In this document: positions 60,840-63,541 of the stretch, one piece after another
How positions within the stretch are numbered: position 1 is the stretch's first letter
Layout: every line of letters begins with the position of its first letter
Assembly (NCBI RefSeq): GCF_013122565.1
Contig: NZ_CP053258.1
Length of the DNA stretch: 64,000 nucleotides
Origin: Escherichia coli
Lineage (GTDB): Bacteria > Pseudomonadota > Gammaproteobacteria > Enterobacterales > Enterobacteriaceae
Direction: 5' to 3' (one strand)
The notes under the pieces: model-generated
The model's database searches: none
What the model was told of the DNA's origin: nothing
Seen by the model: only the letters and a program-made list of their open reading frames with translations
Translations under genes and position numbers: made by a program

Positions 60840-61928
60840 TCACGGCAGGCGGTGGCGGGCTTGATAATAAGCCTGCCAGTGAGCTTCTTTATGTGTGGCG
60901 ACTCGCTGTTCGAAGTAACGGCGCAGACGAGCGCGATCTTCTTCGTTATCTTTGACGATGGTTCCGGCAATACAGTCCACCAGATCGGCTGGCTCACCTG
61001 CGCGATTCGCTAAAAACCAGGCGCGGACGCCCACAGCGTGGGCCACGTTCACGGCTTCAGCGGTGGACATAATCGCTGTTAGTGTATCCATTGACGTTTT
61101 CTTTTCGCCGTTGGCACGCAGATCGCGGAAGGTGCGGACCAGTAACTCCAGTACCGCGTCAGGCACTTTATGCGGAATACCGCTATGGGCCAGCAAACGC
61201 GCCGAAGCACTGGCGACCAGTTCCAGCTCCTGAGCGAAATCCATAATCGGAAAGACAGTTTCAAAATCGAAGCGACGCTTTAGCGCAGCACTCATCTCAT
61301 TGACGCCGCGATCGCGCGTATTGGCAGTGGCAATAATATTAAAGCCTTCCCGCGCATAGAGTTGACTGGCTTCACCAGTGAGTTCCGGCACCGTCATCAC
61401 CCTGTCAGAAAGCATACCTAACAGACAGTCTTGCACTTCCAGCGGTGTACGCGTTATCTCTTCAAAACGGACGATTTTGCCGTCGCGCATTCCCTGGTAA
61501 AGCGGGGCAGGGACCAGCGCTTCCGTTGATGGACCATGATTGATAAGCAGAGCGTAGTTCCAGCCGTACTTGATTTGATCTTCAGTGGTAGATGCGCCGC
61601 CCTGGATGGTTAACCCGGCATCGCCGCTAATAGCGGTTGCCAGTAATTCAGACAGGAGAGATTTTGCGGTGCCCGGTTCCCCCACCAACATCAAACCGCG
61701 CCCGGTGGCAAGAGTGACTAACATACGTTCGACAGCAGAGGGACTAATCACGACTTTACGGCTAATATTTTGCGCGCTATCGCCAAGGATAAAAGCACGT
61801 GCCGCAGGCAAACTTAACTGCCAACCGGGCGGGCAAGGTGCGTTATCATTTTGTTTTAATTTTGCCAGTTCATCGGCGTATAACACAGCGGCAGGCGGAC
61901 GCTGCAGATGATTATTCTGCGGTGACAT
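60840..61928 (-). CDS. yehL: MoxR-like AAA+ ATPase YehL
   Basis: ORF-track 60840..61994; internal ATG at 61928 gives 362-aa MSPQNNHLQRPPAAVLYADEL...; Walker A GEPGTAKS. Confidence 0.88.
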   Translation of the reverse strand: MSPQNNHLQRPPAAVLYADELAKLKQNDNAPCPPGWQLSLPAARAFILGDSAQNISRKVVISPSAVERMLVTLATGRGLMLVGEPGTAKSLLSELLATAISGDAGLTIQGGASTTEDQIKYGWNYALLINHGPSTEALVPAPLYQGMRDGKIVRFEEITRTPLEVQDCLLGMLSDRVMTVPELTGEASQLYAREGFNIIATANTRDRGVNEMSAALKRRFDFETVFPIMDFAQELELVASASARLLAHSGIPHKVPDAVLELLVRTFRDLRANGEKKTSMDTLTAIMSTAEAVNVAHAVGVRAWFLANRAGEPADLVDCIAGTIVKDNEEDRARLRRYFEQRVATHKEAHWQAYYQARHRLP

Positions 61929-62037
61929 ATATTCATCCCTGAAATGTATTAATGAAATAAACGATATTTTACGCGCAATAAATGTTTGGTGCATTAGTTG
62001 TTTGAGCGAAAAATATCTGGAAAGCAGATCACAGTAA

Positions 62038-62120
62038 ATAAAAAAACCTGCTGGTGAGGCAGGTTCTTTTATTTACTACAGTGACGCTAACTTGCTGATT
62101 GTGCAACATTTCGTACCAAC
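62038..62120 (-). ncRNA. orzO: OrzO-like type I antitoxin sRNA (about 83 nt)
   Basis: Minus-strand promoter (-35 TTGCAA at 62150-55, 17-bp spacer, -10 TATAAT as reverse complement of 62127-32); 5' region complementary to the zorO 5' UTR; ends at hairpin aacctgc-tggtgag-gcaggtt (62045-62065) followed on the minus strand by TTTTTTT. Confidence 0.7.
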
Positions 62121-62126
62121 GAATAA

Positions 62127-62177
62127 ATTATAACCATATCCACACTCCATTGCAATTCAGTGAGTGAGATTTATAAT
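62127..62177. promoter_or_regulatory. Overlapping divergent promoters of orzO (-) and zorO (+) sharing one -35 hexamer
   Basis: Palindromic TTGCAA (62150-55) serves as -35 for +strand -10 TATAAT (62172-77, 16-bp spacer) and -strand -10 TATAAT (62127-32, 17-bp spacer). Confidence 0.65.
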
Positions 62178-62358
62178 CCTGCCCGTTGGGAGGTTGTGCC
62201 GGATCGGACCAATTTTAAGTCCTGGCTGCCGGACGGGTGGTGCCGCAGGCGGTGCCCTGATCCGGAGAGCAACGTTTCGTACCAACATACGTAAACCAGT
62301 ATCGACAGGCAGTGTAAGGGTAAGGTGCTGGTGTTGCGCTCCTTAATAAGGAGAGCGG

Positions 62359-62448
62359 ATGGACACGCTGACACAAAAGTTAACCGTGCTCATTGCCGTA
62401 CTGGAGTTATTAGTGGCTCTGTTACGGTTGATTGATTTGTTGAAGTAA
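62359..62448 (+). CDS. zorO: Type I toxin ZorO (29-aa hydrophobic peptide)
   Basis: Hand translation MDTLTQKLTVLIAVLELLVALLRLIDLLK*; strong SD aaggag 5 nt upstream; about 174-nt 5' UTR from the predicted TSS; matches my recollection of ZorO from E. coli O157:H7. Confidence 0.85.
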   Translation: MDTLTQKLTVLIAVLELLVALLRLIDLLK

Positions 62449-62645: not shown

Positions 62646-62729
62646 AATAAAAGAACCTGCTGGTGAGGCAGGTTCTTTTATTTACTACTTTGATGTTAAG
62701 TTACTGATAGTGCAACATGGCATCTCAAC
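62646..62729 (-). ncRNA. orzP: OrzP-like type I antitoxin sRNA
   Basis: Same architecture as orzO: -35 TTGCAA 62759-64, -10 reverse complement of 62736-41, hairpin 62654-62674 plus T-run on the minus strand. Confidence 0.65.
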
Positions 62730-62735
62730 GAACGA

Positions 62736-62786
62736 ATTATAACCACCTCGGGGCCGTGTTGCAATTAAGATAATGAGATTTATAAT
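62736..62786. promoter_or_regulatory. Overlapping divergent promoters of orzP (-) and zorP (+)
   Basis: Shared TTGCAA (62759-64); +strand TATAAT 62781-86; -strand TATAAT reverse complement of 62736-41. Confidence 0.6.
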
Positions 62787-62967
62787 CCTGACTGTTGGGA
62801 AGTTGCGCCGGATCGAACCCATTTCAAGTCCTGGCTACCGGACGGGTGGTGCCGCAGGTAGTGCTCTGATCCGGAGTGCAACATGGCGACTCAACATACG
62901 TAAACCAGTATCGACAGGCAGTGTAAGGGTAAGGTGCTGGTGTTGCGCTCCTTAATAAGGAGAGCGG

Positions 62968-63057
62968 ATGGACACGCTGACAAAAAAGTTAACCGTGCTC
63001 ATTGCCGTACTGGAGTTATTAGTGGCTCTGTTACGGTTGATTGATTTGTTGAAGTAA
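62968..63057 (+). CDS. zorP: Type I toxin ZorP (29 aa; one substitution, Q6K, relative to the upstream copy)
   Basis: Hand translation MDTLTKKLTVLIAVLELLVALLRLIDLLK*; identical SD and context to zorO. Confidence 0.85.
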   Translation: MDTLTKKLTVLIAVLELLVALLRLIDLLK

Positions 63058-63110: not shown

Positions 63111-63238
63111 CTATACTCGTCATACTTCAAGTTGCATGTGCTGCGACTGCGTTCGTTCACCCCGGTCACTTACTTTAGTAAGCTCCTGGGAATTCACTCG
63201 CTTATCGCCTTCCTGCAACTTGAATTATTTAGAGTATA
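63111..63238. repeat. ERIC (IRU) enterobacterial repetitive intergenic consensus element
   Basis: Reverse complement of 63150-63198 reads gtgaattcccaggagcttactaaagtaagtgaccggggtgaacgaac, matching the ERIC core GTGAATCCCCAGGAGCTTACATAAGTAAGTGACTGGGGTGAGCG; terminal inverted repeats ctatactcgtcatacttcaagttgca / tgcaacttgaat...agagtata. Confidence 0.85.
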
Positions 63239-63541
63239 TTATTCTATTTCTTGGTTGAATATATTCTGTAGTTCGCGATTAAAAATTGCTATTACCGTTT
63301 CAGGTGATTCACCTCGTAATTTCCGCTCATCAATACACTCATCTCTTATATAAATCAACGCATCATTTATTTGCGGGTCGGCATCATTAAATGTTGGATG
63401 TAGCCGGAATCGCTCCAGCCGGTAGACGGAACCTGTAAATAATTCAGAGCATTTATGGATCTCAAGTCTGAAGGAAAACGGATCTTCAGGTACAGGGACC
63501 TCATAATCGTAAATAGCAACCAGCTCTTTTTGCACGATCAT
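63239..63541 (-). CDS. yehK: Small uncharacterised protein (YehK-like)
   Basis: 100-aa ORF MIVQKELVAIYDYEVPVPEDPF...; the position between yehI and yehL corresponds to yehK in K-12; identity by synteny only. Confidence 0.5.
   Translation of the reverse strand: MIVQKELVAIYDYEVPVPEDPFSFRLEIHKCSELFTGSVYRLERFRLHPTFNDADPQINDALIYIRDECIDERKLRGESPETVIAIFNRELQNIFNQEIE

Follow-up and report, generated by a model that had tools for sequence, protein, structure and literature searches.

The window, the whole stretch of 64,000 nucleotides of Escherichia coli DNA analyzed here, carries near its right end the known zorO-orzO/zorP-orzP type I toxin-antitoxin pair, which lies between yehL and yehK. The locus is identified by its matches to the Rfam OrzO-P family, by the identity of an encoded peptide to ZorO, and by the yehL and yehK flanks. 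The OrzO-P model (RF02083, gathering score 60) matches the minus strand over its full length in both units, at 62040-62113 with 88.8 bits and at 62649-62722 with 90.2 bits. The product of the first toxin ORF, MDTLTQKLTVLIAVLELLVALLRLIDLLK, is identical to the ZorO peptide printed in PMC6669753. In homologous annotated records yehL and yehK flank the match, and the window ORFs at 60840-61994 and 63239-63541 are in the corresponding positions. BLAST places the region, adjoining yehL, in 5,232 of 5,426 complete E. coli genomes. The best strain match of the window is GF3-3 (99.2%). zor and orz are unannotated in the RefSeq records of the region, and NCBIfam has no Zor family model.

The zor-orz genes were discovered between yehI and yehL in O157:H7 (PMC2887945) and have been characterized by the Fozo laboratory (PMC3919570, PMC5397157). 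The toxicity of Zor and its rescue by Orz come from experiments on the EDL933 genes (PMC3919570). The window and EDL933 have the same locus, and the 174-nt leader, the 18-nt pairing, and the -35 and -10 elements agree. The window represents another strain, however, and its second toxin carries Q6K. The features of units 1 and 2, which are a tandem duplication with 89.6% identity, are as follows.

62037-62120, minus strand: OrzO antitoxin sRNA (Rfam RF02083), with its 5' end placed at 62120 as the probable start
62045-62065, minus strand: OrzO terminator stem, followed by a U run ending at about 62040-62037
62127-62132, minus strand: orzO -10 box TATAAT (ATTATA on the plus strand), with a 17-bp spacer (62133-62149) to the -35 box
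62150-62155, both strands: palindromic -35 box TTGCAA of unit 1, shared by the zorO and orzO promoters (direct reading)
62172-62177, plus strand: zorO -10 box TATAAT, with a 16-bp spacer (62156-62171) to the -35 box
62185-62358, plus strand: zorO 5' UTR, 174 nt, with the OrzO target at 62270-62287 and the RBS AAGGAG at 62348-62353
62359-62448, plus strand: zorO toxin ORF, 29 aa, MDTLTQKLTVLIAVLELLVALLRLIDLLK, downstream of the plus-strand -10 box
62646-62729, minus strand: OrzP-like antitoxin sRNA (Rfam RF02083), probable 5' end 62729
62736-62741, minus strand: orzP-like -10 box TATAAT (ATTATA on the plus strand), with a 17-bp spacer
62759-62764, both strands: palindromic -35 box TTGCAA of unit 2, shared by the zorP-like and orzP-like promoters
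62781-62786, plus strand: zorP-like -10 box TATAAT, with a 16-bp spacer
62794-62967, plus strand: 5' UTR of the unit 2 toxin, 174 nt by analogy, with +1 at G 62794 from the geometry of unit 1
62968-63057, plus strand: toxin ORF of unit 2, 29 aa, MDTLTKKLTVLIAVLELLVALLRLIDLLK, with Q6K relative to ZorO

The elements that the initial annotation had assigned to a toxin and an antitoxin are indeed positioned to serve these genes. An OrzO-P sequence lies downstream of each minus-strand -10 box and a ZorO ORF downstream of each plus-strand -10 box. Directly after the second toxin gene is an ERIC/IRU-like intergenic repeat (63112-63240), a long imperfect palindrome that we take from its sequence to be an ERIC element. 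The same stretch has a sub-threshold Rfam match to V_AS5 (40 bits, gathering score 96).

Transcript starts and RNA pairing

The zorO leader is 174 nt long and has its RBS at +164 to +169 (PMC5397157). These landmarks and the AAGGAG at 62348-62353 place the zorO +1 at G 62185, 8 nt downstream of the plus-strand -10 box. The first 18 nt of OrzO pair with the zorO leader (PMC3919570), which puts the OrzO start at G 62120, 7 nt downstream of the minus-strand -10 box. Both positions are thus published landmarks projected onto the window, and both are consistent with the hexamers. Primer extension had been used to map the starts of the two mRNAs and the two sRNAs (PMC2887945). In each unit, 65 bp separate the two starts.

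With this start, nt 1-18 of OrzO pair without interruption with 62270-62287, and the sRNA is 81-84 nt long, in agreement with the published bands of about 80-85 nt (PMC2887945). The 5' end of the OrzP-like sRNA pairs with the UTR of unit 2 in the same way. The cognate duplexes have energies of -32.9 (unit 1) and -37.6 (unit 2) kcal/mol, versus -25.0 and -23.4 kcal/mol for the non-cognate ones. The Rfam OrzO-P model starts at 62113, 7 nt downstream of the implied 5' end at 62120, so that the model is without part of the functional seed. In growing cultures OrzO is abundant and zor mRNA is also detectable (PMC2887945). The control of zor that has been shown consists of RNA pairing, RNase III, and leader processing (PMC3919570, PMC5397157).

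Geometry and conservation of the promoter core

The promoter core measures 51 bp between the outer edges of the two -10 boxes. On direct reading of unit 1, the hexamers and the 17- and 16-bp gaps proposed for it proved correct to the base, and the proposed repetition in unit 2 (62736-62786) is present with identical hexamers and identical gaps. The consensus scan recovered exactly these four promoter-like sites, two per strand, each with 10 of 12 matches. Each of the four promoters combines TTGCAA (4/6) with TATAAT (6/6), and its spacer of 17 or 16 bp lies within the 16-18 bp of the sigma-70 criterion. The two -10 boxes are separate, with 39 bp between them, and in unit 1 TTGCAA is present only once in that interval.

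Four palindromic hexamers reach the maximum match of 4/6 to TTGACA. TTGCAA is one of them and the only one that keeps TTG, which it does on both strands. For a box that is shared completely it is therefore the best compromise, and its weakness would be offset by the two perfect -10 boxes. Alternative, unshared -35 boxes at other spacings were rejected, as a frame shift of one base gives matches of at most 2/6. The consensus scan detected no extended -10 (TGn) on either side, and the orz side has a conserved GGT only. The segment between -10 box and start is C-rich on the zor side (CCTGCCC at 62178-62184, CCTGACT at 62787-62793), which has the 16-bp spacer, and T-rich on the orz side (TTATTC at 62121-62126, TCGTTC at 62730-62735), which has the 17-bp spacer. 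A 16-bp spacer together with a C-rich segment at the discriminator position, as on the toxin side, resembles short-lived, ppGpp-sensitive promoters. Such features could make the split between the two promoters dependent on growth rate.

The promoter elements themselves are already known and are not new. Figure 1A of Wen 2014 (PMC3919570) has the predicted -35 and -10 elements boxed and the mapped starts marked. A 2024 survey of about 2,400 loci gives TTGCAA as the -35 and TATAAT as the -10 of both genes (PMC11264685). In its Table 3 the -35 occupies one row, '-35 (TTGCAA)', and the percentages given there for zor and orz are equal. Only one TTGCAA lies between the -10 boxes, so the zor and orz -35 elements tabulated there are the same hexamer, and the claim of a single TTGCAA common to both promoters is upheld as something that the published annotation implies. 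The boxes are termed 'predicted' in the source papers. The available portions of the zor-orz literature hold no statement that the hexamer is shared or palindromic, and in the same portions we found no paper on polymerase competition or on overlapping, interfering, or bidirectional promoters at zor-orz. A 2025 review states that the regulation of zor-orz 'remains to be deciphered' (PMC11951105).

Conservation of the core was assessed in copies that a search with the Orz terminator or a BLAST search with the whole locus had brought up. These comprised nine further E. coli records with 83-99% identity and three other Escherichia lineages (E. whittamii, sp. E1V33, and sp. MOD1-EC7003), which were found via the Orz terminator and not via the promoter. 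The cross-species contig scan with this terminator yielded only three loci, which suffice to establish conservation beyond E. coli, from a sample to which E. fergusonii, E. albertii, and Shigella did not belong. All 18 homologous copies, from four Escherichia lineages, have the three hexamers with zero mismatches and keep the 17/16 spacing, and each of the 18 Orz terminators is accompanied by a single core. None of the 18 hexamer columns of the 51-bp core is variable, versus 20 of the 33 columns elsewhere in it (Fisher p=1e-5). The spacer on the orz side has a pairwise diversity of 0.32 and that on the zor side one of 0.16. Outside the hexamers the conserved stretches are short: ACCA adjoins the orz -10, TT follows the -35, and GAGATT precedes the zor -10. 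Across the 2,439 loci of the survey, the -35 is 99.4% identical and the -10 boxes are 99.8-100% identical (PMC11264685 Table 3). The aligned copies indicate that selection acts on the hexamers and their spacing and leaves most of the spacer sequence free, a pattern that functional promoters should show.

No other stretch of the module varies as much as the orz-side spacer (62133-62149, 62742-62758), and in the 30-bp bin that holds it units 1 and 2 are only 63% identical. The spacer is GC-rich in P-type copies and adjoins the equally variable 5' pairing region of the sRNA.

Comparison with other divergent promoters

Two promoters are considered overlapping when the reverse start lies within -80 to +20 and their -40 to +10 regions collide, a situation found for about 14% of E. 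coli promoters (PMC3167631). At zor-orz the reverse start lies at -65, and the two -40 regions have 16 bp in common, with the hexamer in the middle. It is thus one of the tail-to-tail overlapping promoter pairs, which form a common class. Bendtsen et al. 2011 treated binding at such promoters as exclusive and found, by model and experiment, that interference follows occupancy and not strength (PMC3167631). This class is broad, whereas at zor-orz the overlap amounts to exactly one complete palindromic -35. The two products of zor-orz also set it apart among tail-to-tail pairs, as they are a toxin mRNA and its antitoxin RNA.

The starts of bidirectional promoters are said to lie about 18 bp apart in the original description by the Grainger laboratory. 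The two -10 boxes of zor-orz are 39 bp apart and its starts 65 bp, which places it outside that group, and separate divergent promoters are explicitly excluded from the bidirectional class (PMC12825309). The Grainger promoters, which share a -10, are likewise symmetric, can be bound in either orientation, and exclude a second polymerase when one is bound (PMC12825309, PMC10268837). Competition occurs at these promoters only when one direction is made strong or is activated, and noise is then also reduced (PMC12825309). Competition and effects on noise have thus been demonstrated there.

Two other E. coli type I systems, shoB-ohsC and tisB-istR-1, are like zor-orz in having a divergent sRNA antitoxin whose 5' end pairs with a long toxin leader. 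The -35 boxes of shoB-ohsC are GTGACC and TTGTAA and lie about 70 bp apart, whereas zor-orz has one shared box. tisB-istR-1 is LexA-controlled, istR-1 has the -35 TTGCGC, none is given for tisB, and there is no shared -35. Among the divergent type I systems compared (shoB-ohsC and tisB-istR-1), the shared -35 is particular to zor-orz. Since shoB-ohsC has the same layout without it, the sharing is not forced by the gene arrangement. OrzP gives a weak match to the Rfam ohsC model (35.4 bits, E=0.003), and the comparison suggests that zor-orz and shoB-ohsC are of common ancestry. In K-12, the pairing motif of shoB-ohsC (gtgcagcatgcaccctcaa..., at the sRNA 5' end and in the leader) and the layout of the genes resemble those of zor-orz.

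Two other divergent pairs offer a comparison. PR and PRM of phage lambda are a close divergent pair in which a polymerase at one promoter lowers the activity of the other (summarized in PMC3167631). At the gonococcal mtrR/mtrCDE promoters, changes in the adjacent -35 elements shift polymerase between the two (bioRxiv 10.1101/448712). The lambda and mtr pairs have separate or adjacent -35 elements and dedicated repressors, whereas zor-orz has one shared hexamer and no known regulator.

A scan of IMG/VR found the pattern ATTATA-N16-18-TTGCAA-N16-18-TATAAT in at least 120 viral contigs. Removal of near-duplicates from the matches listed left 78 clusters. Among the matches listed, these were distributed over the spacer pairs as follows, the expected numbers being those for nine equally likely ordered spacer combinations.

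Spacer pair 17/17: 34 clusters, 8.7 expected
Spacer pair 17/18: 23 clusters, 17.3 expected
Spacer pair 16/17: 10 clusters, 17.3 expected
Spacer pair 16/18: 6 clusters, 17.3 expected
Spacer pair 18/18: 3 clusters, 8.7 expected
Spacer pair 16/16: 2 clusters, 8.7 expected

The roughly fourfold excess of 17/17 among the matches listed suggests that many of the viral sites are real promoters, perhaps on both sides. Among the matches listed, 11 of 121 sites are between divergent ORFs and 35 of 121 are inside long ORFs. These matches are a hint that divergent pairs sharing a -35 may form a wider class that is recurrent in AT-rich phages.

Proposed polymerase exclusion and its alternatives

We consider it probable, at about three chances in four, that the core is a sigma-70 zor-orz promoter pair with one palindromic -35 at which polymerases exclude each other, so that one promoter fires at a time. 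Two sigma-70-type promoters point away from each other, each with a perfect TATAAT and both resting on one TTGCAA. The plus-strand promoter gives the zorO mRNA, with its 174-nt leader and a 29-aa hydrophobic membrane toxin, and the minus-strand promoter the OrzO sRNA of about 81-84 nt, the first 18 nt of which pair with that leader. Two polymerases would both have to place sigma region 4 in one and the same -35 major groove, and they would therefore not be docked at once. Two polymerases thus very probably cannot hold one -35 simultaneously, and a polymerase on the -35 should bar a second one in the opposite orientation. Only one promoter per template would then fire at any one time, with promoter kinetics setting the split. 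The spacers are invariably asymmetric, with 17 bp on the orz side and 16 bp on the zor side, which should favour the antitoxin, and such a bias would fit the usual logic of these modules. How far exclusion alters the level of either RNA would depend on the fraction of time for which the promoters are occupied.

Exclusion is in our judgment a sound steric inference for a pair that overlaps in the manner defined in PMC3167631. The initial annotation had gone further, describing the two initiations as 'built to be mutually exclusive', which is beyond the evidence, as steric exclusion at overlapping and bidirectional promoters alters output only at high occupancy (PMC3167631, PMC12825309). Both RNAs have been detected in the same cultures (PMC2887945), and any exclusion would thus be kinetic and not all-or-none. 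Mutual exclusion at zor-orz is a reasonable hypothesis attached to a known feature.

The arrangement itself is accurately described and non-random. The probability that intergenic AT-rich hexamers fell into this arrangement by chance is negligible, the idea being effectively refuted by the conservation and the published starts. The simple promoter scan is compatible with chance, as it is unenriched (4 sites found, 3.6 expected from shuffles), and the exact composite also occurs in the AT-rich viral contigs, of which there are at least 120. However, the 18-base composite with at most two mismatches is present twice in 64 kb against 0.02 expected per window (100 shuffles), and a relaxed scan of all 64 kb for tail-to-tail pairs sharing a -35 returned only these two, with none in 60 Markov simulations. 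The two composites are not independent but reflect one event because of the tandem duplication, and the independent support is the conservation, the composite being invariant in 18 of 18 copies while the spacers vary. Experimentally detected RNAs, moreover, start at the expected distances. It is improbable that TTGCAA is mainly the core of an operator, at which a dimeric regulator would switch both promoters together. In favour of an operator, the hexamer is perfectly palindromic and lies in the middle of the control region, CpxR is reported to bind the related shoB-ohsC locus (PMC11264685), and effects of carbon source on zorO and orzO have been given as unpublished observations (PMC3919570). 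The conserved block, however, is only TTGCAATT; the columns on either side vary freely among the copies, and they contain no conserved symmetric site of 12-20 bp. As selection does not extend to a longer symmetric site, a conserved operator bound by a dimeric regulator is less likely, and an extended operator around TTGCAA was rejected on the variation of the flanking columns. The hexamer also stands 17 and 16 bp from perfect -10 boxes with fitting starts, and no regulator has been reported for zor-orz.

A more serious alternative, which we rate at somewhat below even odds, is that the hexamer is physically shared while the promoters are independent in the cell. Occupancy would then be low and the balance of the two RNAs set entirely after transcription, and the sharing would be a compact layout or a leftover of the module's origin. 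Five natural bidirectional promoters with a shared -10, which clash even more directly than zor-orz, speak for this explanation, as at basal activity the loss of one direction left the other without a rise (PMC12825309). So does the modelled interference, which scales with the fraction of time for which a promoter is occupied (PMC3167631). Growing cells contain OrzO as well as zor mRNA (PMC2887945), and all the control that has been shown acts through RNA pairing, RNase III, and leader processing (PMC3919570, PMC5397157). On the other hand, both zor-orz promoters look strong (perfect -10 boxes, 10/12), which is the condition for competition in PMC12825309. The 17/16 geometry has stayed exactly the same in copies whose spacers have diverged, and the related shoB-ohsC is without a shared -35. 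Positive coupling, in which the two promoters would help each other through divergent supercoiling and through the AT-rich -10 of each serving as an UP element for the other, appears quite improbable. By their coordinates, the -10 boxes each lie at about -47 to -58 of the opposite promoter, which is where an UP element would lie. In E. coli, neighbouring divergent promoters have been documented to be topologically coupled (PMC4469952, PMC5175336). The -35 is fully shared, however, and leaves a second polymerase without a free docking site while the first is bound, so that coupling could act only after promoter escape.

The preferred reading, exclusion at the shared -35, admits a stronger form that we regard as unlikely. 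Shared docking would cause the initiations to block each other, the two RNAs would be anticorrelated in single cells, and their ratio and cell-to-cell noise would be set partly by competition between promoters with 17-bp and 16-bp spacers and by the level of free polymerase, in addition to RNA pairing, so that the core would act as a toggle. Such a toggle could explain rare bursts of toxin and also the preservation of an intact toxin promoter in strains without the toxin. If the competition is real, toxin and antitoxin would be coupled at the level of transcription, beyond RNA pairing, and the core would be a compact natural toggle with a shared -35, to be set beside the bidirectional promoters with a shared -10. 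If there is no competition, zor-orz would be an ordinary pair of compact divergent promoters. The wider question touched by these possibilities is how chromosomal type I toxins escape from their antitoxins.

Two strain variants of the core were observed. At the 'orz-only' locus of K-12 MG1655 (NC_000913.3 2203900-2206500; minus strand 446-496), both -10 boxes and TTGCAA are intact. About 30 nt past the zor start, the sequence jumps to the DNA right of the ERIC-like element of the window (~63216), and the orphan toxin promoter points antisense into yehK. The zor -10 is 100% conserved in the 656 orz-only loci of the survey (PMC11264685). In E. coli S1-INA-02-A (NZ_CP145663.1, ~560-600), the end of an IS1 abuts the orz-side spacer 16 bp from TTGCAA. 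The antitoxin -10 is thereby split from the shared -35, and the remnant of the zor-side promoter is intact.
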